Shown here: positions 16,437 through 40,831 of the stretch, piece after piece
How the letters are laid out: each line of letters opens with the position of its first letter
How positions within the stretch are numbered: position 1 is the first letter of the stretch
Assembly: GCA_024275255.1 (NCBI GenBank)
Contig: JAJRZL010000122.1
Span: 1-45,903 of the forward strand
Length of the DNA: 45,903 nucleotides
Reading direction: 5' to 3'
Source: Candidatus Zixiibacteriota bacterium
GTDB lineage: Bacteria; Zixibacteria; MSB-5A5; GN15; FEB-12
The notes under the pieces: model-generated
Seen by the model: the letters and a program-made list of their open reading frames with translations, nothing else
The model's database searches: none
What the model was told of the DNA's origin: nothing
Program-made: the position numbers and the translations under genes

Positions 16437-18632
16437 ATGCCAGTATTTGGTGATTTTTGTATAGTAGCGGCAGCGTTAACAACGACTATATCGACCCTTT
16501 TATATCTCTTTGTCTGGCGGGGGAAACATCTATACCGTCAACTGGCTCGGTACTTTTTTACGGCTTCCATGTTAAGTATCGCTGCAGCTCTATTGACTTT
16601 GCTGTTGCTTATTCTGCGGCATGATTTCACGGTAGCTTATGTTTTCTCGTACTCCTCGACCGATTTACCCTGGTACTACCTTGTTTCCTCGTTATGGGGC
16701 GGGCAGGAAGGGACCTTTCTCCTGTGGATATTTTTTGTCTCCATTATGGCATTTGTGATGATGCGCTCGGCTCGTTCCTTTGAGGTCGGCAATATGTTTT
16801 TTGTGAACCTGTTCGTGTTGGCTATTCTTGTTATTCTATTGAAGAAATCCCCTTTCGAGTATTTACCGGTATTTCGTAGCGAAGGGGCGGGATTAAACCC
16901 ATTGCTACAAAATTTCTGGATGACGATTCATCCCCCTATCATGTTTGTCGGGTTTGCCGGTACGCTTTTTCCCTTTGTATATGGATTGACCGGTCTTATT
17001 GAGCGACGGTATGATGTCTGGGCGGAAGCGGCTCGCAAGTGGACCCTGTTTGCCTGGACGGCGCTTGGTGTTTCCTTAGTGATGGGCGGATACTGGGCAT
17101 ATAAGACCCTCGGCTGGGGGGGATTCTGGGCATGGGACCCGGTAGAAAACTCCTCCTTTATTCCCTGGATTTTCCTCACTGCCCAGGTGCATACCCTGTT
17201 TATCAAACGACAAAGGCGAGGGTTGATGCGTTTTTCATTGATAATTGTCTGCCTGACGTTTTGGTCGGTTCTGTATGGGACTTTTTTGACCCGGTCAGGA
17301 GTCCTGGCTGATTTTTCGGTGCACTCATTTGTCGATCTTGGCATTAACAATTTTCTCATTGGTGGTTTGTTGCTGTTTGTCGGATTGGGGAGCTACCTGT
17401 TATTGCTCCGCTGGCAGGATATCAAGCCGGGACCGTCGTATTCCAGGGTGGCATCTCGTTCGTATGTCGTCACCCTTGGTATAGTCGTGCTTTTTCTTGG
17501 AGGGATATTAACATTACTGGGGACCTCCGCCCCGCTACTTACCCGGTTTGCAGAGAACCCATCAAACGTTGGAATCTCGTACTATTTTGCTACCATGACA
17601 CCGGTGGCTATTGTTGTTTTGTTTCTGTTGGCGTTGTTCCCCAGTCTGAAGTGGAATCATGGTATGAAACGACCGGCGCTCCTTTTTGTCGGCGGCGTGA
17701 TTGGACTGATTACCGCTCTTCTCTTATTTATTGTGGGGGTTACCTCCCAGGTACTATACTTACTCTTGTTCTGGGCTGCTGTATGGGCAATACTATCCAA
17801 CGGTTATATTGTATATTCCTCGTGGCGCACGAAGGGAATGCAGGCGGCATATTTAGCACATATCGGTATTGCCGTCGCTATTGTTGGAGCTGCGGTATCG
17901 GCAGGATTTGAAAAGAAAAAGACAATTACTTTGCCACAGAGCCAACTGGTGAATGAGAGTGGATATTCCATGCGGTTTACTGAATTAGAGGAAACTCCGA
18001 AAGGATTCAACTGTCATGTACAAGTAAAACGAGGCGGTACGGAGTTTGTTGCCATCCTCCCGCATGAGTTTCCAAAGAATCAGGAAGGGGTTATGCGTAA
18101 GCCGTATGTGGAAAAATTTCTCGGGTACGATTTCTATATGTCCCCCCTTGCTTTGGAAGAACCTGAAAACAACAATACCAACCAACTCATATTATCCAAA
18201 GGGGAAACAGCTTCATTTGATAAATATACAATTACATTTCATGATTTTGAGTTGGGTAGTCATGGTGAGGAAGCCATGACAGAAGCAAAAGCATTATTAA
18301 CCGTTGTATACGAAAATACGGAAGAAGAAGTTGTCCCCTCGATTCGGCTGGTAGGCGGAACGTTGGAAACCACTCCGGGAAAATTCGATTACGGCAAAGC
18401 ATCGGTAGTTATTGCCGGAGTACGCCCTGAGGATGGCTCGGTTGTTCTTGAGTTCCGGGGCGACTTTTTACCGCAAACGGAACTTCAGACTGCTTCATTA
18501 GTTATTGAACTTTCTGAAAAACCGTTAATAAATCTGTTCTGGCTGGGGACTATCCTGGTCTTTATATCGGGGGCACTTTCAATGCAAGAGCGGCGTAAAC
18601 GACACAGTGCAATTGCCGTAAAGCAATCCTAA
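16437..18632 (+). CDS. ccmF: CcmF/NrfE-type cytochrome c haem lyase (system I)
   Basis: The protein is polytopic, with the Trp-rich haem-handling motif WGGFWAWDPVENSSFIPW, plus HPPIMFVGFAG and AHIGIAV. Confidence 0.8.
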   Translation: MPVFGDFCIVAAALTTTISTLLYLFVWRGKHLYRQLARYFFTASMLSIAAALLTLLLLILRHDFTVAYVFSYSSTDLPWYYLVSSLWGGQEGTFLLWIFFVSIMAFVMMRSARSFEVGNMFFVNLFVLAILVILLKKSPFEYLPVFRSEGAGLNPLLQNFWMTIHPPIMFVGFAGTLFPFVYGLTGLIERRYDVWAEAARKWTLFAWTALGVSLVMGGYWAYKTLGWGGFWAWDPVENSSFIPWIFLTAQVHTLFIKRQRRGLMRFSLIIVCLTFWSVLYGTFLTRSGVLADFSVHSFVDLGINNFLIGGLLLFVGLGSYLLLLRWQDIKPGPSYSRVASRSYVVTLGIVVLFLGGILTLLGTSAPLLTRFAENPSNVGISYYFATMTPVAIVVLFLLALFPSLKWNHGMKRPALLFVGGVIGLITALLLFIVGVTSQVLYLLLFWAAVWAILSNGYIVYSSWRTKGMQAAYLAHIGIAVAIVGAAVSAGFEKKKTITLPQSQLVNESGYSMRFTELEETPKGFNCHVQVKRGGTEFVAILPHEFPKNQEGVMRKPYVEKFLGYDFYMSPLALEEPENNNTNQLILSKGETASFDKYTITFHDFELGSHGEEAMTEAKALLTVVYENTEEEVVPSIRLVGGTLETTPGKFDYGKASVVIAGVRPEDGSVVLEFRGDFLPQTELQTASLVIELSEKPLINLFWLGTILVFISGALSMQERRKRHSAIAVKQS

Positions 18633-20776: not shown

Positions 20777-22471
20777 ATGAGAAAGGATAAACGTATGGAC
20801 ATTGAACGCGAAATCCTCGAAACAGATATAGCAATTGTCGGGGCGGGACCGGCAGGATTGGCGCTGGCTTATAAATTGGCGCAGCTCATCGAAGCCGATG
20901 GCTCGGTCGATATGCCGGAAATTCTCCTGATGGAAAAAGGTTCCCATTGCGGAGCACATGCTCTTTCCGGGGCGGTTATGGATCCCCGTGGGTTGGCGGA
21001 GTTAATCCCCGATTATATCGAAAAAGGTGCTCCCTTGTCTGCACCTGTTTCCACTGACAGCATGTATTATTTGCGTAAGTCAGGGGAATTCAAGTTTCCC
21101 TTTTTACCGCCGTCATTGAGTAATCATGGTAATTATGTCATTTCCCTTAACCGGCTGACTTCATGGCTCGGTGAACAGGTAGAGGCAAAGGGGATTGATA
21201 TTTTTGCCGGCCTTGCCGGATATAATCTTGTCATTGAAGATGGCGTAGTAAGCGGTATTCAGACGGTTGATATGGGGCTTGATAAAGAAGGAAATCCAAA
21301 ATCCAATTTTGAACCGGGTTCGATTGTCAAAGCAAAGGTTACGGTTTTATGCGAAGGAGTTCGTGGTTCGTTAACACGCCAGGCATTGGAACAAATACCG
21401 GAACTGACAGCGGGGCGACTGCCCCAGACATTCCTGACCGGTGTCAAAGAGGTCTGGGAAATTCCCGAAGGACGTATCAAAGCCGGTGAAGTTATCCATA
21501 CTATCGGTTGGCCCCAGCCGAACCATGAATACGGCGGCGGCTGGGTTTACGGAATGAGCAATACCATGGTCTCGGTCGGCTATGCTGTCGGGTTGGATTC
21601 TCCCGATCCCACCAACGATCCTCACATGAAATTCCAGCGGTACAAAACCCACCCGGTATTGAAGAGAATCCTTGAAGGCGGCACCATGCTTCACTACGGG
21701 GCAAAAACAATCCCCGTGGGCGGGTATTATTGTATGCCGAAACTTTTCCACGCAGGGTTGCTGCTTTGTGGAGATTCTGCCGGTTTTCTTGACCCATCTC
21801 GTTTGAAAGGAGTGCATCTGGCGATTAAGTCGGGGATTATGGCAGCGGAAACGCTGTTTGACTGTCTGAAGGATGGCGATTTCTCTCCAGGTAAACTTGC
21901 CGGATATGAACAACGATTTGAAAATAGCTGGTCAAAACGTGAGTTATATAAATCACGCAATTTCCATGCAGCGTTCAAAAATGGTCTCAAGTCGGGGATG
22001 TTCCATGTCGCAATCCAAACCCTTACCGGAGGAAGAGGGCTGTTTGATCGACGGGAGCACAAACCGGATCACGAATATATGCTCACGATTGAAGCCTTTA
22101 CGAAACGATTCGGTCAAAAGCCACACAAAGAATCAATCAAGTTTGATAATTCATATACATTCGATAAATTAACTGATGTCTATAAGTCGGGTACTCAACA
22201 CGAAGAAGAACAGCCGCCACATCTGGTGATTGCTGATTATGATATATGCAATAATCGTTGCACCGAAGAATATGGTAACCCTTGCCAACATTTTTGTCCG
22301 GCGCATGTATATGAGATGGTAGAGGATTCCGAACGTGACGTAAAGTTGAAACTACAACTTACCCCGTCGAATTGTGTGCACTGCAAAACCTGTGACATCG
22401 CCGATCCATACCAGATAATACGCTGGGTAACTCCCCAGGGTGGTGAGGGTCCGAATTACGAGAATTTGTAA
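20777..22471 (+). CDS. Electron-transfer flavoprotein:quinone oxidoreductase (ETF-QO)
   Basis: It has the FAD motif IVGAGPAGLALA and a C-terminal 4Fe-4S region CVHCKTCDI. The alternative start ATG 20795 has a better SD. Confidence 0.85.
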   Translation: MRKDKRMDIEREILETDIAIVGAGPAGLALAYKLAQLIEADGSVDMPEILLMEKGSHCGAHALSGAVMDPRGLAELIPDYIEKGAPLSAPVSTDSMYYLRKSGEFKFPFLPPSLSNHGNYVISLNRLTSWLGEQVEAKGIDIFAGLAGYNLVIEDGVVSGIQTVDMGLDKEGNPKSNFEPGSIVKAKVTVLCEGVRGSLTRQALEQIPELTAGRLPQTFLTGVKEVWEIPEGRIKAGEVIHTIGWPQPNHEYGGGWVYGMSNTMVSVGYAVGLDSPDPTNDPHMKFQRYKTHPVLKRILEGGTMLHYGAKTIPVGGYYCMPKLFHAGLLLCGDSAGFLDPSRLKGVHLAIKSGIMAAETLFDCLKDGDFSPGKLAGYEQRFENSWSKRELYKSRNFHAAFKNGLKSGMFHVAIQTLTGGRGLFDRREHKPDHEYMLTIEAFTKRFGQKPHKESIKFDNSYTFDKLTDVYKSGTQHEEEQPPHLVIADYDICNNRCTEEYGNPCQHFCPAHVYEMVEDSERDVKLKLQLTPSNCVHCKTCDIADPYQIIRWVTPQGGEGPNYENL

Positions 22472-30835: not shown

Positions 30836-31360
30836 CTATGACCCTTTTGTCTTTTCTATCAATTCCTTCAATTTACGGAGTGTGTCCGGGTCGGCATCAT
30901 CAATCATGTTTTTCAAATCATTTTGCAGGCTAACCTGTTCGGCGAGTTGTTTTTCCTCTTCGCTGGTATCCATTCCCAGCAGACGCTTGATAGCAGCGAC
31001 ATAGTTGTCCGGTTTGACCGGTTTCTCAAGGTAAATCCCGGGACCGGACATAGTCAGTTCTTTTAAGTCTGCTTTCCCGATATCATCGCGGGCGTGTCCG
31101 GTGACAATGATAATGGGAATTTTCGACCACTCTTTGTTCTTGTTCAGGTCATGGTAGAACTTTGCGCCGGAATGTTTCGGCATTACAAGATCAAGTGAAA
31201 TCAAGTCGGGTGGTTGTTCTTTTACTTTTTCCAGCGCTTCAAAACCATCCGATGCTGTTACAACCTCAAACCCGGCTTCAACCAGCGCTGTTTTCAAAAA
31301 TAACCGGACATCCGCTTCATCATCCACGACCAGAATTGTTTTTCTGGTTGTTGTTCCCAT
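30836..31360 (-). CDS. Single-domain response regulator (REC) with short C-terminal helical tail
   Basis: The receiver pattern is ILVVDDEADV...DLISLDLVMPKHSG...LEKPV. Confidence 0.85.
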   Translation of the reverse strand: MGTTTRKTILVVDDEADVRLFLKTALVEAGFEVVTASDGFEALEKVKEQPPDLISLDLVMPKHSGAKFYHDLNKNKEWSKIPIIIVTGHARDDIGKADLKELTMSGPGIYLEKPVKPDNYVAAIKRLLGMDTSEEEKQLAEQVSLQNDLKNMIDDADPDTLRKLKELIEKTKGS

Positions 31361-31400: not shown

Positions 31401-32885
31401 CTACGATTGTTCCTTTTTCAATTTTTGTTCTTCTTCGTATAATGCCGTCAGGCGTTTGAATGGAAACTCCATGCGAAACCGCGAGCCTTTTCCCGGAGTG
31501 GAATCGACAAAGATTTTTCCGCCATGTTCCTGCACTATCTTGCGTGTGGTCAAAAGCCCAAGTCCGGTTCCCTGCCCTCCCTTGGTGGTGAAAAAGGTGG
31601 TAAATATTTTTTTCTTCAGTTCATAGTCAATACCACTGCCGTTATCGGAGACTTCGAACATAAGCTTGTCGCGTGTTTCCCATACCCGAATGATAACGTC
31701 GGAGCCCTTTTTCTCACTCATTAAACAGGCATCAATAGCATTGGAAACGAGGTTGGTCAGGCAGGTATGGATACCGTCGGGATCGAGCGGAGCTTGTTTC
31801 ATTTTTGACGGAATATCGGCTCGCAGTTCGATACCTGAGCGGGCTGCTATTTCTTTGTACAACCCCACTATTTCTTTTACAATCTCACCCGGATCAACCA
31901 TTTTCAGTGACGGCAGGCGTCCCTTGGAGAAACTCAGGAAGTCTTTCACCAGGGCTGTTGTTTTTTCGAAATTGCGTTCCAGCATTTCCCAGCCTTCGCT
32001 AATCATTTTCTTGTCATTCTTTTGCAGCCCAAGACTGACAATATATTTCCCGCCTTCCAGTCCCATCAGGATATTTTTAATACTGTGTGCCAAACCGGCA
32101 ACAGTTTGACCTACTGCTCCCAATCGCTCGGCTTCGATAACCTGTTGTTCGAGTTTTTTCAAATCAGTGACATCGGTTGAGATTTCAATAACGTGTGCTA
32201 CATTATCACCGGTACGTTTCAAAGGCGAGGTAGATACGACATAATAAATATCCTGTCCCCGCTTACTGGTGCCGACTTGATTGGAGCGGTGGATTTTCCC
32301 GTCCCGGAATGTTTTTGCCGCCGGACAGTTTTTGCATTTCGAATCGCGACGTTTATACACTTCGTAACAGTAGTGATTGATGACATCGCCGAATTTTTCC
32401 CGGAAAGCTTCGTTTGCCCGGACAATACGATACTGTTCATCAATCACGGTGATATAGCATGGCACCCGATCGAACAGTATCTGGTATTCCTGCTGCCATT
32501 GTGCGGTTTCAGTAACCGGTCGTATCATTTCCAGCACATATTCAACTGGGCTGTGTTCCGTTCGTTTCAACGGGGCACAATGACCGACATAGTGCGTTTG
32601 TCGTCCGTGTTTATCAAATCCGACAGAATCAGTGACAATTGCCTTTCCTTTTTTGAACACAGTAAGAGCAGGACATTCATCACAAGGGGTCATCCGTTGT
32701 TTATGAACTGTGTAGCATTTCTTCCCGTGCCAATCGCCAAAATGTTCGGTGAAATTTTTATTTGCTTCCACGATATTATAATCCCGGTCAATTATTGCCA
32801 CGTTAAAAGGCACATGTTGAAACAGCGACTGGTATATCATATCAGTCAGCCGACGTGGGACTTTTGACCTGGATTCAGCAGCCAT
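31401..32885 (-). CDS. Soluble PAS-PAS sensor histidine kinase
   Basis: There is no TM segment. It has two PAS-like domains, each with a C-x10-C-x2-C motif, an H-box (GLAHSIKNIL) and HATPase motifs (NLVSNAIDA, DNGSGI, GTGLGL). Confidence 0.85.
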   Translation of the reverse strand: MAAESRSKVPRRLTDMIYQSLFQHVPFNVAIIDRDYNIVEANKNFTEHFGDWHGKKCYTVHKQRMTPCDECPALTVFKKGKAIVTDSVGFDKHGRQTHYVGHCAPLKRTEHSPVEYVLEMIRPVTETAQWQQEYQILFDRVPCYITVIDEQYRIVRANEAFREKFGDVINHYCYEVYKRRDSKCKNCPAAKTFRDGKIHRSNQVGTSKRGQDIYYVVSTSPLKRTGDNVAHVIEISTDVTDLKKLEQQVIEAERLGAVGQTVAGLAHSIKNILMGLEGGKYIVSLGLQKNDKKMISEGWEMLERNFEKTTALVKDFLSFSKGRLPSLKMVDPGEIVKEIVGLYKEIAARSGIELRADIPSKMKQAPLDPDGIHTCLTNLVSNAIDACLMSEKKGSDVIIRVWETRDKLMFEVSDNGSGIDYELKKKIFTTFFTTKGGQGTGLGLLTTRKIVQEHGGKIFVDSTPGKGSRFRMEFPFKRLTALYEEEQKLKKEQS

Positions 32886-33294
32886 GGGTATGCCTTTTCT
32901 TTTTTCGGGGTGATGAAGTTAATGTGTCGATTGTTTTCAGGAATTTGGCAACATTTATGGGTTTTTCCATGAAACAGTCAGGCAACGGAATAGATTCATC
33001 AGGAATATATGAACGAAAATCGAAATCATCAGTTTGTATAACCCCACTGATGACCAGTACCGGAATCTCACGTGTTGCTGGTTCCTGTTTCAGTTTTGAG
33101 TACATGGAAATACCGGATTCCTGCGGCATCATAATGTCAAGGCAGATGAGCACCGGGCAGATTTTTTTTGCCGATTGGAACCCATGTTTTGCATCCGATA
33201 CGACAACCGGGTGATACCCGTTCGTTTTCAGGATTGCAGCAAGATAGGTTGCCACATCCGGTTCATCTTCAACTATGAGAATATCCTTACTCAT
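32875..33294 (-). CDS. Single-domain response regulator (REC)
   Basis: The receiver pattern is ILIVEDEPDV...VLICLDIMMPQESG...MEKPI. It overlaps both neighbouring genes (8 and 11 nt). Confidence 0.85.
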   Translation of the reverse strand: MSKDILIVEDEPDVATYLAAILKTNGYHPVVVSDAKHGFQSAKKICPVLICLDIMMPQESGISMYSKLKQEPATREIPVLVISGVIQTDDFDFRSYIPDESIPLPDCFMEKPINVAKFLKTIDTLTSSPRKKKRHTHGC

Positions 33295-35176
33295 TCTTAT
33301 GTAACTGTTCCTTCTCCTGTTTGAGATTCACACCCGGTATGACAACATGGTTGAAGTATGGTCCGGACAGGTGTTTGCTGATTTCTGCCTTGAGGTATTT
33401 TGGCGGGGCTGACTGATGACAGGTGGTGCAGAGCGCAAGGTTCTTTTTGTCCGACAATTCCTCTGCTTTTTTCTTATGACAGGAAACACATAACTCGTGC
33501 ATTGCAGTGACATACGGTGGAGCGGTATAGTTTTCCACTTTGATGGGATTGTCACTGGGGAGTAAATCAAGATGGCAGTCATCACATTTTTTTGCTGTCT
33601 CCGCCTGTCGTTCTTTTCCTTTTGGATGACACTGGGTGCAGGCGATATTTCCACCATGAGCATCAGCATGCCAGTCATGGTTGAACGCATCAGTGGGAGA
33701 ATACATGTAACGGTGGCATTCCCAACAGCCGGTAGCTTTATCCATCGGCATATTCATATGGTGGCATTTGTCACAGGACTGCTTTTGCCCAAGACTGTCA
33801 ATATGTTGGGTATGGGCAAACAGGACACCGTACTCGTCATGGTTACCATCAATAAAAAGGGTGTCGCCACCTCGTGCTTTTTGTACCGGGACAATTTCCA
33901 CCCCTTTGCTTTCTATCTTGTGACTTGGTATAAGTGCAAAACCAAGAGCAAAACTGAGCAGAAGCACCAGAGTGTATTTGGTACGGGCGGCGAGGGGCGG
34001 AGTTCCCAGCCACACTTCCGAAGTATGATCAAATACCGGCGGGGTATAGGGTTCCCATTCGGGGTCCTGAGGTTTCTCTTTCCATATATGGAATCGTTCA
34101 ATAGCAAACAGAAACGCAAGACATGCCGCAGAGACGACCCCAAGACTGATTGTTATTTCCATCCATGAAGGCACATAAGTATCGCCGGTCGCCCGTAGCA
34201 TGGTCAGGCCGCCGACATTGATGCGGTTGAAAATCATGCCGAATACTACCATTGATGACCCTACCCATTGTCCGGCGGTACTGGTGCGTACTTTTTTTAT
34301 GGAAAACAGGATGATGGGAATAACAGTGGAAATCAACATTTCCAGAATAAACAAATATGATTCCCACGAGCCATCAAACATAAGATGCCATTCACCCGAG
34401 AGCCAGATGTCAGCCATTTTTACTATGAAATAAATAGATAATACCCAAACAGCTGCTTTTGCCAGTTTTTCGACAAGGTTGGTTTCCGGTTTCCGACGAA
34501 ACAGCCAGTGGGAGACAAGGCTTTCATAAGCAATCATCATCAGTCCAAGAGCAACAGCGGAAATAAAAAACAGCAGGGGAAGAATATGTGAATACCAGAG
34601 TGGGTGCAGTTTGAAGGGCATAATAAGAAACAAGGAACCGAGAGAAGACTGATGCAACGTAGAAAGCATAATACCCAACAACACCAGGGGAAAACGGAAT
34701 TTCATCAGGATACGCCGAATCCTTGCATAGCGGCTGGTTTCTTCAAGTGGAACCGGGCTGAATTCAAGAAGCAGTACCGTGGTGTAAAGCATTACGCACC
34801 AGCCGACTTCGAACAACGGTGAATGAGGGTTCCAGTATATCATCATGTGCCAGATATTCCACGGCAGCCCCAAGTCGAACAACAACCCGAACACAACAGC
34901 GAGATATCCAAGAAATGCGGTTAGTACTGCCGGTCGGACAAAGCTGTGAAATTCCTCTCGTTTGAATATGTAGAAAATAGCAGTAATAACAAATCCGCCC
35001 GCTGCCAGTGCTACTCCAGCCATGACATCGAAGCCAATCCAGATTCCCCACGGGGTGGCATCGGTAAGGTTGGTGGTTGCACCCAGACCGAACAGAAAAC
35101 GGGTAATACCGACCGCTCCGGCAAATCCGACAATTGACCAAAGAATAAGCTTGGTGATGCGAACTCGGTTATTCAT
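33287..35176 (-). CDS. NrfD/PsrC/DsrP-like polytopic membrane subunit fused to a C-terminal hexahaem cytochrome c domain
   Basis: The first ~400 aa form a multi-TM domain of NrfD type. An extra TM follows, then six CxxCH motifs (CDKCH, CWECH, CTQCH, CDDCH, CVSCH, CTTCH). Confidence 0.8.
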   Translation of the reverse strand: MNNRVRITKLILWSIVGFAGAVGITRFLFGLGATTNLTDATPWGIWIGFDVMAGVALAAGGFVITAIFYIFKREEFHSFVRPAVLTAFLGYLAVVFGLLFDLGLPWNIWHMMIYWNPHSPLFEVGWCVMLYTTVLLLEFSPVPLEETSRYARIRRILMKFRFPLVLLGIMLSTLHQSSLGSLFLIMPFKLHPLWYSHILPLLFFISAVALGLMMIAYESLVSHWLFRRKPETNLVEKLAKAAVWVLSIYFIVKMADIWLSGEWHLMFDGSWESYLFILEMLISTVIPIILFSIKKVRTSTAGQWVGSSMVVFGMIFNRINVGGLTMLRATGDTYVPSWMEITISLGVVSAACLAFLFAIERFHIWKEKPQDPEWEPYTPPVFDHTSEVWLGTPPLAARTKYTLVLLLSFALGFALIPSHKIESKGVEIVPVQKARGGDTLFIDGNHDEYGVLFAHTQHIDSLGQKQSCDKCHHMNMPMDKATGCWECHRYMYSPTDAFNHDWHADAHGGNIACTQCHPKGKERQAETAKKCDDCHLDLLPSDNPIKVENYTAPPYVTAMHELCVSCHKKKAEELSDKKNLALCTTCHQSAPPKYLKAEISKHLSGPYFNHVVIPGVNLKQEKEQLHKNE

Positions 35177-35209
35177 TTGTTTTGTCCCCTCCCTTGTCTT
35201 GTGCCAGTT

Positions 35210-35932
35210 TCATCCGTCGTCGAATAATCCAGTTGATTCCATACATCGCCCCCCCATACCGACAAATGCAAACGGCACTGCTTTCATTGCCAGTCTGGTA
35301 GTTGCCGGTAACGGGGTCGCTCCTGGATTTGGCTGATAGGCAAGAAAACCAAGGTCGATATCTGAGATATACAGGACAGAAGTCCCTCCGACTTCATGTT
35401 CCCCCCAAACCTTATGAATATATGTATCCGGTTCCTGTTTTATACGATGGTGTGCCTCTGCCAGTAGTTCATCACGCTCACCAAAAATGGTCGCCTTTTG
35501 AGGGCAAACTTCCGTGCAGGCAGGTTGTTGTCCTCGTTGTAAACGGTCGTAGCACATGATACATTTGCGGATATAGGGAACTACCTGATCCCAGTCATAA
35601 CGGGGAATACCATACGGGCAAGCCATCATACAGTAGCGGCATCCGAGACAACGTTCACTGTCATAAATAACCGGACCTTCCGGCGTCTTTTGCAAAGCAC
35701 CAACCGGGCAGACAGAAGCGCAAGCCGGTTCGAGACAATGACGGCATTGTTTACGAATATAATGATTCCCCGGTTTCTGGAGTACGGAGGTCCAGTTCTG
35801 CGCTGAAAGTCCGTCGTTTTTCTGCCAGACACGGGGGACATCCGTACCCAGATTGTTTACGGTTTTACAAGCGGATACACACTCTAGGCAACCGATACAT
35901 TTAGTAATATCAGTCAGGATAGCAACACTCAC
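35210..35932 (-). CDS. Four-cluster 4Fe-4S ferredoxin-type subunit (NrfC/PsrB/DsrO/HmcB-like), no recognisable signal peptide
   Basis: The Cys groups are CIGCLECVSAC, CRHCLEPACASVCP, CLGCRYCMMACP and CIMCYDRL...ACTEVCP. The GTG start overlaps the upstream TGA (GTGA). Confidence 0.85.
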   Translation of the reverse strand: MSVAILTDITKCIGCLECVSACKTVNNLGTDVPRVWQKNDGLSAQNWTSVLQKPGNHYIRKQCRHCLEPACASVCPVGALQKTPEGPVIYDSERCLGCRYCMMACPYGIPRYDWDQVVPYIRKCIMCYDRLQRGQQPACTEVCPQKATIFGERDELLAEAHHRIKQEPDTYIHKVWGEHEVGGTSVLYISDIDLGFLAYQPNPGATPLPATTRLAMKAVPFAFVGMGGRCMESTGLFDDG

Positions 35933-36633
35933 ACCGGCGCTCCTTTCTTGTTGAGTGTGGTACAGATAGCATCATCAGTATCTGCCGGGAATTTCCACGC
36001 CAGATTGGAAACGAATTGCGACAACGGCATTAATACGCAATGCGCTATCTTGGTGAATGGCATCAGAATGAAAATGAGCTCAGCCGATAACACATGAGTC
36101 AGCATGAGCAACTGGTAGAGCTTTGGGCTGATAGTGAGATTAGCGCATACATAACCGGATATAAAAGGAACCAGCAACAGCAGGGGCCAGAGATAATCCT
36201 GAAACCGACTGAGGAAACTCGAGGAACGGGTAAATACTCTCCCGATAAATAAAGCAATACCGCTGGCAATAGTAAGAATAGTCAGCCAGTCAGCCCACTC
36301 TTTCGACAATGTGAACCAACCGAACCCGATAGCCTGTTTCCACAGGTGCACATGTGCAAACAGAAATACTGGAACCAACAGTAACCCGACATGAAATAAT
36401 ATGGAAATACTGCTGAATATCGGTCGGTATTTGAACACCCGGTTGATTGGGATAAACCACTGGAGGCTACGGCTGATTATCAACCCCCACGGGAGGTCTT
36501 TTTCTCCGGCTTTGCGATAGGCATCGTACGCACCCAGCAAGTCCAATACAATAACCCGTAACAATCCCAGCGCCATAATGGCAAAGCTGAAACGAAAGAA
36601 GGGACCGCGGGCGAAATCAAGCAACGCATCCAT
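35929..36633 (-). CDS. NarI/DsrM/HdrE-like membrane di-haem b subunit
   Basis: It is a ~5-6 TM protein with conserved His in TM helices (FHVGLL, HVHLW, LTHVL) and the family-typical MPFTKIAHCVLMP motif. Confidence 0.7.
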   Translation of the reverse strand: MDALLDFARGPFFRFSFAIMALGLLRVIVLDLLGAYDAYRKAGEKDLPWGLIISRSLQWFIPINRVFKYRPIFSSISILFHVGLLLVPVFLFAHVHLWKQAIGFGWFTLSKEWADWLTILTIASGIALFIGRVFTRSSSFLSRFQDYLWPLLLLVPFISGYVCANLTISPKLYQLLMLTHVLSAELIFILMPFTKIAHCVLMPLSQFVSNLAWKFPADTDDAICTTLNKKGAPV

Positions 36634-36636
36634 ACG

Positions 36637-38124
36637 CTATACCTCCTTTAGGGTGTCATGTTTTTTCTCAACGGGGATTTTCAGGGAATCATCGAATATG
36701 ATGGCTTTGTAAATCAGGTCGTGCAACCCGACAACTTCGCAGTCAATCCCCTGGTCTTCGACCAATTCCCGTAATTGTTTCTTGCAGTTAGCGCACGGTG
36801 CCACTAACACCTCACAACCACATGCCCGGATCTGGTCGGCTTTCAGTTTACCGCCTACGGTTGTCCGGTAGGGACGGATCTCATCGATGGAAACCGTTCC
36901 GCCGCCACCGCCACAGCAAATGTTGTCATCACCGTTGGGGGTCATTTCGATATAATTAGGACAAAACGCTTTCAGGAGTTCACGCGGTTGCTCAATTATC
37001 CACCGTTGGCGGGCAAGGTTGCAAGGGTCATGGTATGCAACTTTTTCGGTAACGACGTTGGGATCGAGTTTCAAGCGTCCTTCTTTCCAGACCCGGTGGG
37101 TATATTCGATGATATTGATTACCGGAAAAGCATCTTTATAACCACAATAGGTTGGCAGGAAACATTTGGCACTTCGGGAGGCATGACCACATTCTCCAAT
37201 GAGGACGTTTTTCCCATTCAGGCGGCGTGTTTCGGCATCAACTTTTTTCACAATACGCTCAAGCATCCGGTCGCTGTAAAACAAGCCGTAGTTGATGCCA
37301 TCAAAGTAGCCGGTACCGATTGTCCATGAATCACCGGTGGCAGTGAAAACCGCAGCAATACCCATCAAAGTTTCCGCTTCCATCAGAAAATCACTGACTG
37401 CCGGGAAAAAGACATAGTCAGCACCTTCAACATCAATGGGAAACTTGATTTCCACTCTCTTGTCCTCAAGCATATCTTCGGAGAGGAACTCAAGCGTGTC
37501 CAGTAATGCCGGGACCGGGATAGCAGATGTATTCCCGGATGCACCTTCCAGTTGTTCGCGGGTGCTGACCACCAATGCCCGGGGAGCGATACCGATTTCA
37601 CTTAAAATGTACCTCCCCAGATGAGTAATAAGTCCGTGGTCGATACCGGTTGGACATTCCAGGGCACAGCGTCGGCAGGCAGTACAGTTCCAGAAGCTGT
37701 CTGCCATTTCTTCAATCATCTCATCCGTCAGGTGACCGGTTACCAGCAGGCGTCCTTTGAGCATTCCACCGAGAGTGAAATGACGACGATACACGTTCAA
37801 CAGGAGTTCCGAGCGATAGCAGGGAATATCTTTCGGGTCGCCGGTAGCCTGATATATTTGACAGGAAGTAGCGCAACGGGCGCATTTGGCAGTGGACCGA
37901 ATATAATGGTCAAGTGCCAATCGATAACTGGAATGTTTCAGGATTGCTGCAAATGCCTGAAGAAACCGGCGCGGGCGGTCTTCGACATCATAGTCCTCGA
38001 CATGATAACGAACCGGTAACCGCTGGCGTTCTATTACCTCCGGTTTTTTGGGGATAGCAAATGCCTTTTTACGTTCCTCAGGGGTTATAATGTTTGTTTT
38101 TATTCTCATTCTATGCTCCAGCAA
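36637..38124 (-). CDS. HdrD/DsrK/HmeD-like Fe-S oxidoreductase with CCG domains
   Basis: It has two ferredoxin-type Cys motifs (CARCATSC...C and CTACRRCALECP) and CCG-type motifs (HDPCNL...NICCGGGGG, APCANCKKQL). Confidence 0.8.
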   Translation of the reverse strand: MLEHRMRIKTNIITPEERKKAFAIPKKPEVIERQRLPVRYHVEDYDVEDRPRRFLQAFAAILKHSSYRLALDHYIRSTAKCARCATSCQIYQATGDPKDIPCYRSELLLNVYRRHFTLGGMLKGRLLVTGHLTDEMIEEMADSFWNCTACRRCALECPTGIDHGLITHLGRYILSEIGIAPRALVVSTREQLEGASGNTSAIPVPALLDTLEFLSEDMLEDKRVEIKFPIDVEGADYVFFPAVSDFLMEAETLMGIAAVFTATGDSWTIGTGYFDGINYGLFYSDRMLERIVKKVDAETRRLNGKNVLIGECGHASRSAKCFLPTYCGYKDAFPVINIIEYTHRVWKEGRLKLDPNVVTEKVAYHDPCNLARQRWIIEQPRELLKAFCPNYIEMTPNGDDNICCGGGGGTVSIDEIRPYRTTVGGKLKADQIRACGCEVLVAPCANCKKQLRELVEDQGIDCEVVGLHDLIYKAIIFDDSLKIPVEKKHDTLKEV

Positions 38125-38135
38125 GCATTACCTGT

Positions 38136-38939
38136 TTATTGCAGGTTATTCTGAGTTGTATGTATTTCTTTTCCTGTCTTTTTTGGTGTTGCAAGTGACG
38201 CCTTTTCGTGGTTCAATACCGGTCCTTGTAAAATTGGCAGTTTATCCGGTGAGTGAGGTTCACCTGCTATATCTTTTGTATCAGGATCAATAAGCTCAAT
38301 GCCATATTCACGGCAGCACTCTTCAATATTGGGTCGGGAAGGGCATATATACACCCGGGCATGATATCCACTGGGGGTGGCATGATGAAATTCCTGAATC
38401 TCCTGCGAATGACGGTAAGTTTGCGCTCCACAACAGATAGCAACTTTTACCGTGCGATGACAACAAGGGCATTCAATTTTTGCCACCAAATCAACAAGGT
38501 AATGGTCTTTATCGGGTGCCGGAGTGACCCGGTACCCATGAGATTCAAAAAGGTTCTTTGCCCAGTCAACAAGGTCGTTGTGTGAGATACTGCATGATTC
38601 AAAGGCTTCATCGGGGGGACAGCTATGGGTGGTTAATTCTCCCGCAAGGTATTTTTTCAGAGTCGTTGAGAAGGATTCGCCGATATTGCAAATAACAGTT
38701 ACCCCAGAAGCCGTGAGCATATCACGGTAAAAACCTTTGATACCATTGCAAATTAACGTTCCGACTTTGTGCATCTGGAGCAGGCGAACTCTCCGGAGAC
38801 CTTCCTGACCGGAAAGATTGACAACCTGTGAAGATAGAACCCGGTTGCTTTTGTCAACTTCAGCTATCCAGAATGTTCCCGCAGCTTCAAAACAGGGGGC
38901 TATCTGGGTACCGAACTGTGGTATTGCAATTTTCACCAT
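38136..38939 (-). CDS. NifX/NifB-C-terminal-like (dinitrogenase FeMo-cofactor-binding fold) protein with a Cys/His-rich C-terminal extension
   Basis: The N-terminal ~105 aa (VKIAIPQFGTQIAPCFEAAGTFWIAEVD...LICNGIKGFYRDMLTASGVTVI) fit the small NifX-like family. The C-terminal ~150 aa carry CPCCH, CC and ECC motifs. ATG 38939 is preferred over TTG 38951 because of the promoter position. Confidence 0.6.
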   Translation of the reverse strand: MVKIAIPQFGTQIAPCFEAAGTFWIAEVDKSNRVLSSQVVNLSGQEGLRRVRLLQMHKVGTLICNGIKGFYRDMLTASGVTVICNIGESFSTTLKKYLAGELTTHSCPPDEAFESCSISHNDLVDWAKNLFESHGYRVTPAPDKDHYLVDLVAKIECPCCHRTVKVAICCGAQTYRHSQEIQEFHHATPSGYHARVYICPSRPNIEECCREYGIELIDPDTKDIAGEPHSPDKLPILQGPVLNHEKASLATPKKTGKEIHTTQNNLQ

Positions 38940-38959
38940 CTCCTCCAGCAATAAAGTAA

Positions 38960-38975
38960 TGCAACAGTTGTGCCA
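38960..38975 (-). promoter_or_regulatory. Sigma-54 (-24/-12) promoter for the redox-complex operon
   Basis: The minus strand reads TGGCAC-AACTG-TTGCA, a perfect match to TGGCAC-N5-TTGCW. The predicted start site is about 10 nt upstream of ATG 38939. A sigma-54 activator gene lies next door. Confidence 0.65.
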
Positions 38976-39037: not shown

Positions 39038-39122
39038 TGTTGCATATATCGCAACACATACTGTTGCGTTGCAATAGCTACTTGTTGCGTTGCAACACTT
39101 CACTGGTAGTGTTGTTGCAACA
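39038..39122. promoter_or_regulatory. Four TGTTGC/GCAACA palindromic sites; candidate upstream activator sequences for the adjacent enhancer-binding protein
   Basis: The sites are TGTTGC-N7-GCAACA (39038-39056), TGTTGCGTTGCAA (39062-39074), TGTTGCGTTGCAACA (39083-39097) and TGTTGCAACA (39113-39122). They lie 65-150 bp upstream of the sigma-54 promoter. Confidence 0.45.
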
Positions 39123-39132
39123 GTTGAACTAT

Positions 39133-40473
39133 TCAGGGAGTGATGCCGTAACGCTTGAGTTTACGCCAGAGAGTAGTTCGGTGAATACCCAGTTCGCGGG
39201 CGGCGTGGGTGATATTTCCCTTATATTTTTTCAATATCGTAATTATCCGGCTTTGTTCGTCCATCGGGGTTTCATCTTCGCTGCTGCTTGAAGTTGCCTG
39301 ATACTTTGCTGAATCTTCCGGTTGTAACAGTTCGAGGGGGAGATGTTCCTTTTTGATGATGCTGCCATGACAGATAACAAAACCGTATTCGATGATATTT
39401 TCCAGCTCGCGGATGTTCCCGGGGTAGTCGTGCTGCATAAGGATAGTCATAACTTCCGGGCTGACACTGATAATACGTTTCCCTTTACGGGCATTGAATT
39501 TTTTGATAAAATGGTCAACAAGGTACGGGATATCTTCACGCCGGTCTTTTAGGGGAGGGAGTTCAAATTTCACTACTGCCAACCGGAAGTATAAATCATC
39601 ACGAAACTTCCCCTGTGCTACCAGTTCTTTGAGGTCCTTGTTGGTAGCAGCGATGATACGAATATCAGCCTTGACCGGAGAAGTACTGCCGACTGGTTCG
39701 TATTCGCGTTGTTGCAGTAACCTGAGGAGTTTGACTTGTGTTGACAGGGGCAGGTCACCTATTTCATCAAAGAACACTGTTCCTCCGTTTGCCTGGGCGA
39801 GCTTGCCTTCTTTGTCCTGCTTGGCATCGGTAAAGGCGCCTTTCACATACCCGAATAATTCTGATTCAAACAGTTGATGGGGCAGCGTGCCGCAATTGAT
39901 AACCACATGCTTTTTCTCACGACGAGGGCTCAAACTGTGAATGGCATGAGCGAACAGTTCTTTACCGGAACCGGAAGGACCCTGAATGAGCACGGTACTT
40001 TCGCTTTCGGCAATATCAGGGAGGATGGCAAACAGCTTATGAATCTTGGAGCTTTTAGAAATGATGTCTTCAATCGAGTATTTTTTGTCCAGTTCTTTGC
40101 GTAAATGTTCGATAGCTGATAAATCACGGAATGTTTCCACCGCTCCGAGAACATTACCGGCATCATCACACAAAATTGCCGTAGAGATGCTGATAGGGAT
40201 TCTTTCTCCGCGACTGTTGATAATGCTCACCGGTCGGTCGATAGTTTCCATTCCGGTTTGCAGGGTTTGTTCGAGCAGGCAGTGCTCGCAAATATCAGAA
40301 TGAAGCACATCGGCGCATCGTTTACCGATTGCTTTTGATGCCGGGATACCGGTTATTTTTTCCGCAGCCCGGTTGAAGCTGGTAATAATGCGATCGTTAT
40401 CAACAGTAAAGACACCATCGGCAATAGAGTTCAGGATTACTTTGAAAAATCGCAGGTCTTCAGGGTCATTCAT
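39133..40473 (-). CDS. Sigma-54-dependent transcriptional activator (PAS - AAA+ - Fis-type HTH), no receiver domain
   Basis: It has Walker A (GPSGSGKE), ESELFGYVKGAFTDA (a GAFTGA variant) and a C-terminal HTH (ITHAARELGIHRTTLWRKLKRYGI). The start ATG 40473 has the SD AGGAAAGAGG upstream. The 57-codon ORF extension looks non-coding. Confidence 0.9.
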   Translation of the reverse strand: MNDPEDLRFFKVILNSIADGVFTVDNDRIITSFNRAAEKITGIPASKAIGKRCADVLHSDICEHCLLEQTLQTGMETIDRPVSIINSRGERIPISISTAILCDDAGNVLGAVETFRDLSAIEHLRKELDKKYSIEDIISKSSKIHKLFAILPDIAESESTVLIQGPSGSGKELFAHAIHSLSPRREKKHVVINCGTLPHQLFESELFGYVKGAFTDAKQDKEGKLAQANGGTVFFDEIGDLPLSTQVKLLRLLQQREYEPVGSTSPVKADIRIIAATNKDLKELVAQGKFRDDLYFRLAVVKFELPPLKDRREDIPYLVDHFIKKFNARKGKRIISVSPEVMTILMQHDYPGNIRELENIIEYGFVICHGSIIKKEHLPLELLQPEDSAKYQATSSSSEDETPMDEQSRIITILKKYKGNITHAARELGIHRTTLWRKLKRYGITP

Positions 40474-40831
40474 ACTGTTTTGTATCACCTCTTTCCTTTT
40501 CCTAATAAGTATACACAAATGACTATATAAAGGAAACTGCCAAATCAACATGAAACTGACAAATGTTATCTTACCGGATATCAAATACATAAGCTTTTTT
40601 GTGGATAAATTTTGTACAAGTTTATTCACAAAAAGTAATGTCATTACAAGTGAAACATCAACTTTTGATTGACAATTATTACCCGTAAAGACAATTTAGT
40701 ACCGTCCAGGGTTTGGTGCCGGGTAGCCTGTTTGTAATTTTCTCAATAACATACATTATATGGCTACTTTACCTGAGGGAGGTAGTTGGAGATGAAAACA
40801 TTTGAACCGTGATGTATTAAGGAGTATGTGA

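Follow-up and report, generated by a model that had tools for sequence, protein, structure and literature searches.

A NrfD-type membrane subunit joined to a hexahaem cytochrome c in Candidatus Zixiibacteriota and its candidate place in a Dsr-linked membrane complex

NrfD-like subunits have been described as cofactor-less membrane partners of separate iron-sulfur (FeS) and catalytic or cytochrome subunits. Can such a subunit and a multihaem cytochrome be one polypeptide, and what would a protein of this kind do? Both questions are raised by a 629-amino-acid (aa) product encoded on a 45,903-nucleotide (nt) contig of a Candidatus Zixiibacteriota bacterium (JAJRZL010000122.1, assembly GCA_024275255.1), which we analyzed over its whole length and call the window. 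A preliminary description of this gene had proposed about 400 aa of NrfD-like helices, one additional helix and a soluble tail of about 200 aa with six CxxCH motifs. Pfam matches and hydropathy show that this layout is accurate, and the six motifs are found as listed, at residues 468, 484, 513, 531, 563 and 583. We conclude that the protein is an NrfD-type subunit of the HybB/HmcC subtype joined to a periplasmic hexahaem cytochrome, and that the fusion is genuine and evolutionarily stable. The gene and its parts, including an eleventh transmembrane (TM) helix, are the following.

33287-35176, minus strand: fusion gene, consisting of NrfD module, linker, TM helix 11 and hexahaem cytochrome c domain (629 aa, no internal stop, full-length homologues)
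34067-35176, minus strand: NrfD-like module, residues 1-370, ten TM helices with both termini cytoplasmic (Pfam, NCBIfam, positive-inside rule, AlphaFold2 (AF2) model, HybB residues)
33971-34099, minus strand: cytoplasmic linker, residues 360-402, of pattern ERFHIWE..P..PE.DP...F....WLG.P..AART, with five lysines or arginines (K/R), kept in the six-haem group
33914-33970, minus strand: TM helix 11, residues 403-421, through which the chain exits to the periplasm (hydropathy peak 1.82; AF2 helix at 393-415; found in all fused homologues)
33290-33913, minus strand: periplasmic class III cytochrome domain, residues 422-629 (Pfam, motifs, profile matches, conserved histidines)
33761-33775, 33713-33727, 33626-33640, 33572-33586, 33476-33490 and 33416-33430, minus strand: the six CxxCH motifs

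Profile searches identify both halves. Pfam NrfD (PF03916) matches residues 36-319 above its gathering threshold (E 9.5e-18; 65.3 bits, cut-off 25.8). Residues 497-587 match Cytochrom_CIII (PF02085) at 45.6 bits against a cut-off of 22.9, which places the tail in class III, and Cytochrome_C7 and Cytochrom_c3_2 also match there. Among the NCBIfam profiles, HmcC (NF045714) aligns residues 17-370 with profile positions 13-373 of 376 at 327.5 bits, below its equivalog cut-off of 550, and HybB (NF008133) aligns residues 10-364 at 279.8 bits, below its cut-off of 450. The N-terminal half thus scores as NrfD/HmcC/HybB, and the tail scores as a class III multihaem cytochrome, as had been anticipated for both. 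All six CxxCH motifs lie within 190 residues, each is kept in 31/31 six-haem homologues, and the tail contains no other cysteines. This is far beyond chance.

The topology of the protein places the haems outside the cell. By hydropathy, the NrfD part has ten helices, and an eleventh spans residues 403-421. The number of lysines and arginines per successive loop alternates as 3/0/3/0/4/1/5/0/3/1/5, which puts the N-terminus and the 43-residue linker after helix 10 in the cytoplasm and the haem domain in the periplasm, the side on which the preliminary description had expected it. NrfD-like subunits of the 10-TM-helix class (HybB, DsrP, QrcD and ActC) have their termini on the membrane's N-side (PMC8076601). 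The fusion fits this class, with two four-helix bundles and flanking helices A and B. The linker and TM helix 11 are conserved in the alignment of six-haem fused homologues, and TM helix 11 looks like a retained signal-anchor.

Does the NrfD half retain the features of a quinone-reactive subunit? An AF2 model built on 45 fused homologues reached a mean predicted local distance difference test (pLDDT) score of 70.9, with membrane helices of high confidence. A direct search of the PDB with the whole protein sequence gave no match. A fold search with the model returned eight significant PDB matches, all of them ActC or ActF of alternative complex III (ACIII), with TM-scores on the target of 0.54-0.60. 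We also aligned Escherichia coli HybB (from NC_000913) with the 45 fused proteins. The proposed quinone-site residues of HybB, D58, D109, S129, E133 and S190 (PMC8076601), fall in invariant or near-invariant columns. The same is true of the proton-path residues R89, Y99, E148 and H184, for which mutational evidence is cited in PMC8076601, and of E291 and R329. Y141, E155, S186 and S187 of HybB are likewise conserved, and S105, T63 and S95 are not conserved among the 45 proteins. This pattern suggests a cofactor-less, quinone-interacting module that is probably also proton-conducting. Binding and turnover of menaquinone by this module are predicted from residue conservation.

The haem half also has solved relatives: the best of them, when a family profile was compared with the PDB, are the 16-haem HmcA cytochromes, the dodecahaem protein GSU1996, the nine-haem cytochrome and cytochromes c3. 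Five histidines outside the motifs (H455, H473, H500, H503 and H560) are conserved in 31/31 members of the six-haem group, and H458 is conserved in 28/31. Six additional histidines is the number required for bis-histidine ligation of six haems, and we predict that the domain is ligated in this way. No non-motif cysteine is conserved in the fused haem domain of the six-haem homologues, which leaves no candidate for a DsrJ-like His/Cys haem. In the alignment, haems 1, 3 and 4 have counterparts in the c7-like relatives with three haems. With haem 2 added they make up a tetrahaem unit of c3 type, which haems 5 and 6 extend.

How widespread is the fusion? In a collection of 5.8 billion proteins, the 120 best clusters, a lower bound on the number of such clusters, contain proteins of 595-637 aa that are 63-94% identical over 94-100% of the query. 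All 120 carry both the NrfD and the class III cytochrome Pfam domains, and they are named at the source just 'HybB-like' or 'NrfD/PsrC family'. In a library clustered at 50% identity, 18 representatives align in one stretch over the junction, down to 30% identity. We found 80 loci from independent assemblies among contigs representing one genome per species. The C-terminal region comprising linker, helix and haem domain is present in 61/201 genomes of the window's phylum, and nearly all of these (about 55) have a stop-free frame of 620-690 aa. Because the open frame is conserved over independent assemblies, the fusion is not an assembly artefact, and a missed stop or a mis-join, of which the preliminary description had warned, is excluded. 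Full-text literature searches, the NrfD review and several genome papers yielded no description of a NrfD-cytochrome fusion. The statement that these subunits are separate polypeptides in known complexes agrees with the main review of NrfD-like proteins, which contains neither 'fused' nor 'fusion' (PMC8076601).

The same architecture occurs widely across phyla, which bears out the preliminary description in the database search that it had proposed, and the homologous loci fall into three groups. The first consists of six-haem fusions accompanied by the genes F, E and B described below, in records labelled Zixibacteria (some assigned to Ignavibacteriales by depositors), Calditrichota and Bryobacterales/Terriglobia. 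The second consists of three-haem fusions with B only, in KSB1, Latescibacterota, Holophagales, Myxococcota, Riflebacteria and others, and the third of unfused pairs of B with the NrfD gene, C. In a quick maximum-likelihood tree of the NrfD part only, the six-haem forms make up one clade with a long stem that spans three phyla (Shimodaira-Hasegawa-like approximate likelihood ratio test support, 100), and the three-haem forms are scattered among unfused ones. The 50%-identity library also holds NrfD joined to 500-700 extra residues of multihaem cytochrome (917-1091 aa in total), NrfD joined to c7-type repeats (829 aa in total), and B::C fusions with and without a twin-arginine translocation (Tat) signal, among them a natural FeS::NrfD fusion that has no signal peptide.

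Several observations on these relatives stand apart from the six-haem fusion. The long NrfD-cytochrome fusions, the c7-repeat fusion and the signal-less FeS::NrfD fusion of the library are entries P0225, P0264, P0266, P0161 and P0185. Two short entries that were candidate unfused forms, P0226 and P0256, begin inside the conserved linker, which suggests gene calls that were cut short. Many genomes of the phylum (G138, G094, G076, G119 and others) have another NrfD-cytochrome fusion, a paralogue with frames of about 655-678 aa and a haem domain 34-43% identical, which was not found in the window's own genome. In the loci with three-haem or unfused forms (L021-L080), the B-C pairs have as neighbors a histidine kinase with two TM segments and a single CxxCH, along with a sigma-54 regulator and small single-TM proteins, a cassette that differs from the six-haem operon.

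With which proteins does the fusion work? Its gene comes last among the structural genes of a compact minus-strand operon, X271-F-E-B-C::cyt6, in which the fusion is preceded by the following genes.

35169-35932, minus strand: B, an HmcB/HybA/FdnH-like subunit with four [4Fe-4S] clusters and no Tat signal (HmcB 239.7, HybA 199.6 bits); the assembled reading frame ends at 35210
35929-36633, minus strand: E, a TmcC/HmcE/DsrM-like membrane cytochrome b (NCBIfam TmcC 110.9, HmcE 104.8 bits)
36637-38124, minus strand: F, a DsrK/HmcF/TmcB-like cytoplasmic FeS protein with a CCG domain (DsrK 281.5, HmcF 212.6, TmcB 209.5 bits; Pfam CCG, Fer4_8)
38136-38951, minus strand: X271, a NifX/Nitro_FeMo-Co-domain protein with a cysteine-rich C-terminal half, the first gene of the operon (Pfam PF02579, 27.6 bits)

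The operon is conserved across loci L001-L019, and the core F-E-B-C is also found in Acidobacteriota loci. X271 is kept upstream of F in the loci of Zixibacteria and Calditrichota. The cofactor ligands of the partners are invariant among homologous loci: 16/16 cluster cysteines in B, 4/4 histidines in E, and both ferredoxin motifs and the CCG cysteines in F. In the window itself a 1-nt indel at seven consecutive G (35249-35255) breaks the frame of B. The indel removes the conserved C-terminal TM anchor and RRR tail of B; the remainder lies in another frame, with its stop at 35169-35171. A relative that is 94% identical (L092) reads GGGGGGAG at this site and encodes an intact B of 254 aa. The frameshift is probably a homopolymer error of the assembly.

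The host genome (2.87 Mb, 95.8% complete) links the fusion to dissimilatory sulfur metabolism. It has DsrC and a partial dsrA whose gene start lies at a contig end. Another contig (C338) encodes DsrK (739.8 bits), a trihaem DsrJ, DsrO with a Tat signal and DsrP, and the canonical DsrC is on the same contig. Given this canonical cluster, the complex encoded in the window is an additional one, and we rejected the idea that the window operon is the organism's DsrMKJOP. Across the phylum, dsrA is present in 72/201 genomes and the fused domain in 61/201; all 61 carriers of the domain are dsrA-positive and 0/129 dsrA-negative genomes have it, a pattern among related genomes and not a statistical test. 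The fusion-bearing, dsrA-positive genomes span ten families. In family f1 the fusion is found in 17 genomes versus 21 with dsrA, of 72; in f4 the numbers are 17 versus 18, of 21. Nine families have zero fusions and zero dsrA. As a separate observation, the host genome holds two tandem DsrC-family matches (77-78 bits) in one 223-aa frame (G000:C54:1802-2431), besides the DsrC on C338. This frame may encode a duplicated or fused DsrC/TusE-like protein.

Which known complex offers a template for electron flow? From the cryo-electron microscopy structure of DsrMKJOP it has been concluded that quinol is oxidised at DsrP and that electrons pass through DsrO, DsrJ, DsrM and DsrK to DsrC-trisulfide (10.64898/2026.08.25.746951). 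By analogy with this structure we favor, with somewhat better than even confidence, a reading in which the fusion is a subunit of a Hmc/DsrMKJOP-like transmembrane complex that passes electrons from menaquinol or from the periplasm to a cytoplasmic DsrK-like site. Domain identities, topology, conserved cofactor ligands, the operon and the co-occurrence with dsrA are observed; the order, direction and substrate of electron transfer are drawn from the analogy. In such a complex, menaquinol would be oxidised at a P-side site of the NrfD module and its electrons would enter the four [4Fe-4S] clusters of B. From B they would reach the fused haems, which would stand in for DsrJ or HmcA, and would then cross the membrane through E, by way of its two haems b, before arriving at the FeS clusters and the CCG, non-cubane site of F. 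At F the most likely substrate would be DsrC-trisulfide or a thiol/persulfide carrier related to it. Exchange of electrons between the haem domain and soluble periplasmic partners, in either direction, is also conceivable. The earlier suggestion that the fusion would wire the quinone site directly to the haems goes beyond the data: the gene immediately upstream codes for a four-cluster FeS subunit of HmcB/HybA type, which in all homologous complexes sits between quinone site and haems.

Several points weigh against this Hmc/DsrMKJOP-like complex. The apo haem domain of the AF2 model is of low confidence. All subunits of the operon stay below the equivalog cut-offs that NCBIfam sets for Hmc, Tmc, Dsr and HybB (for F with the DsrK profile, for example, 281.5 bits where 400 are needed), and function is therefore transferred from relatives rather than from orthologues. 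The genome already encodes DsrMKJOP, which leaves the role of a second complex unclear, and the co-occurrence counts come from genomes that are not independent. DsrD and DsrH were not found in the genome, and the DsrD control matched no genome at all, so neither protein is informative on the direction of sulfur metabolism. Finally, B has no Tat signal in any of the 80 loci, and DsrO of the same genome (L088, 570-1373) has one; the operon encodes no Tat-bearing partner, and no hydrogenase was found in the 95.8%-complete genome. How B would reach the periplasm, or whether it gets there, is thus unexplained.

We also weighed two rival readings and consider both of them unlikely. Might the fused haems instead be an exit from the quinone pool? 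The protein would then belong to a quinol:cytochrome c or extracellular-electron-transfer module that delivers electrons to periplasmic or outer-surface acceptors, as in ACIII, the Geobacter Cbc complexes or CbcL, and the DsrK/DsrM-like pair would be accessory or a separate unit. The fold is indeed nearest to ActC of ACIII, in other lineages NrfD is joined to c7 repeats or to multihaem cytochromes of great length (900-1090 aa), and the three-haem fusions accompany B alone, without E or F. However, the overlapping operon of the six-haem clade always includes F and E, genomes with the fusion are all dsrA-positive, and the window has no porin-cytochrome genes. These features argue against the exit module, to which we give a low probability.

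The second rival, to which we assign a similarly small chance, takes the missing Tat signal at face value. B would be cytoplasmic and would connect to F or to a cytoplasmic donor, and the haem domain alone would serve the P-side quinone site. The absence of a signal from B in every locus, of a Tat partner from the operon and of a detected hydrogenase from the genome all speak for it, and NrfD complexes that face the N-side exist (SoeABC; PMC8076601). Against it, B keeps a C-terminal helix of HybA/FdnH type with RRR behind it, and by the positive-inside rule this speaks for an FeS domain that faces outward. In addition, a natural B::C fusion (P0185) has a K/R-rich linker between the helix of B and TM1 of NrfD, and the NrfD core is in the PsrC/ActC orientation, with its docking face turned to the P-side. 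FeS proteins that are tail-anchored, lack a signal and pair with HybB-like subunits have been described as hitch-hikers on a Tat-dependent FeFe hydrogenase (10.1101/2023.11.02.564894), and a route of this kind, on a Tat substrate, could carry B outward. Hitch-hiking on a hydrogenase is unsupported for this organism, whose genome gave a sub-threshold NiFeSe_Hases match only and no FeFe hydrogenase; molybdoenzymes are present. A Tat-like RRF in F (residues ~52-56) was also discarded: its distance from the N-terminus is 50 residues, no hydrophobic stretch follows, and the region around it aligns with the DsrK profile. If B were truly cytoplasmic, a NrfD-type subunit would have an FeS protein on its cytoplasmic side and haems on its periplasmic side, a wiring undescribed for any NrfD complex of PsrC/ActC orientation. 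A Tat-less, tail-anchored FeS partner poses a concrete question of protein export.

That the fusion is an artefact, with a stop or start hidden by a sequencing error or two genes mis-joined, is refuted for practical purposes: the homopolymer indel in the neighboring B gene shows that this assembly is not free of errors, but the frame is uninterrupted in at least 120 clusters, 80 loci, 18 cluster representatives and about 55 genomes of the phylum, and the linker and TM helix 11 are conserved.

How does the proposed Hmc/DsrMKJOP-like complex compare with its closest relatives? The HmcABCDEF complex of Desulfovibrio (Nitratidesulfovibrio) vulgaris has the same kinds of module: a tail-anchored HmcB type with four [4Fe-4S] clusters, an HmcC-NrfD type, an HmcE-cytochrome b type and an HmcF-CCG type. 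HmcC is the best NCBIfam match of the NrfD part, end to end, and HmcA is among the best solved relatives of the haem domain. Unlike the fused cytochrome, which has six haems and is attached to the C-terminus of NrfD through the extra helix, HmcA is a separate protein with 16 haems. The gene order is A-B-C-D-E-F in Hmc and F-E-B-C here; the window operon has neither HmcD nor a separate cytochrome, and HmcB is exported by Tat, whereas B has no Tat signal. The window subunits are below the equivalog cut-offs, and a NifX-like gene and a two-component set are inside the window operon.

DsrMKJOP from Archaeoglobus fulgidus (10.64898/2026.08.25.746951) shares the combination of a cytochrome b/CCG-FeS module with a module of NrfD, FeS subunit and membrane-anchored multihaem cytochrome c. 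The DsrK profile gives F its best score, DsrJ too has one helix that holds it beside the NrfD subunit, and there is the link to dsr genes. DsrJ is a trihaem protein with a His/Cys haem, in contrast to the six predicted bis-His haems and the lack of a conserved extra cysteine in the fusion. In addition, the cytochrome is covalently joined to NrfD here, and B is nearer to HmcB/HybA than to DsrO. Could the operon encode a Dsr-dedicated membrane complex of a third kind, next to DsrMKJOP and Hmc/Tmc, with a cytochrome welded to NrfD and an FeS subunit that has lost its Tat signal? We regard this as a speculative idea that is probably wrong.

HybA/HybB of E. coli hydrogenase-2 is a relative at the level of single subunits. 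The NrfD part is ~30% identical to HybB and keeps its quinone-site and proton-path residues, and B resembles HybA, including a C-terminal anchor followed by RR. Unlike B, however, HybA carries a Tat signal. HybB lacks a cytochrome domain, and hydrogenase genes are absent from the window operon and were not found elsewhere in the genome. ACIII (ActC/ActA; 6BTM, 6F0K, 6LOD, 8K9E) supplies the best structural matches of the membrane module and also has a 10-helix NrfD-like subunit working with a FeS subunit and a membrane-anchored multihaem cytochrome. It differs in that ActA is a separate polypeptide, ActB has a molybdopterin-like domain, a second NrfD-like subunit, ActF, is present, and there is no cytochrome b/CCG module.

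The fusion had also been likened to CbcL. Geobacter sulfurreducens CbcL does unite a quinone-interacting membrane domain and a periplasmic multihaem c domain in one polypeptide. Its scaffold, however, is a dihaem b-type cytochrome of the HydC/FdnI type and not a cofactor-less NrfD, and it serves extracellular electron transfer and not a Dsr-linked complex. CbcL is thus a conceptual analogue, but the closest relatives are the Hmc and DsrMKJOP complexes.

Why does a covalent link between NrfD and a cytochrome matter? A lineage in which the two are a single polypeptide widens the picture of NrfD-like subunits, and the fusion offers structural biology a complex with built-in stoichiometry. Limited in the phylum to genomes with dsrA, and met again in Calditrichota and Acidobacteriota, the fusion is a candidate for an electron route, so far unrecognised, that leads into the DsrC cycle or out of it. 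This route would concern uncultured sulfur-cycling bacteria that lack the Desulfovibrio-type chain of hydrogenase, cytochrome c3 and Qrc. The fusion could also be a genomic marker beside dsrAB.

The operon is flanked by signalling genes and control sequences, which are listed here in order of position.

30836-31360, minus strand: second receiver protein (Pfam)
31401-32885, minus strand: soluble PAS histidine kinase (Pfam)
32875-33294, minus strand: receiver protein, whose gene overlaps the fusion gene by 8 nt (Pfam)
38961-38975, minus strand: sigma-54 promoter of consensus TGGCAC-N5-TTGC, TGGCACAACTGTTGC, the sole perfect match in the window
39133-40644, minus strand: PAS/sigma-54 enhancer-binding protein (Pfam Sigma54_activat, 221 bits; HTH_8; PAS)

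The operon order including receiver, kinase and receiver recurs in loci L001-L011, L015 and L019, and the gene for the sigma-54 activator is likewise upstream of the operon in relatives. The PAS/sigma-54 protein is likely the activator of the fusion operon. About four TGTTGCAAC-like repeats lie upstream of the sigma-54 promoter, at 39040-39125, and are probably binding sites of the adjacent enhancer-binding protein. The operon kinase has two PAS domains, each with a C-x9-C-x2-C-like motif (CYTVHKQRMTPCDECP, CYEVYKRRDSKCKNCP). Judging from these cysteines, we suggest that the kinase may be a metal- or cluster-binding redox sensor. Elsewhere, the window encodes a CcmF-type haem lyase and an electron-transfer flavoprotein (ETF):quinone oxidoreductase (16437-18632 and 20777-22471), which fit with a host that matures cytochrome c and has a quinone pool.

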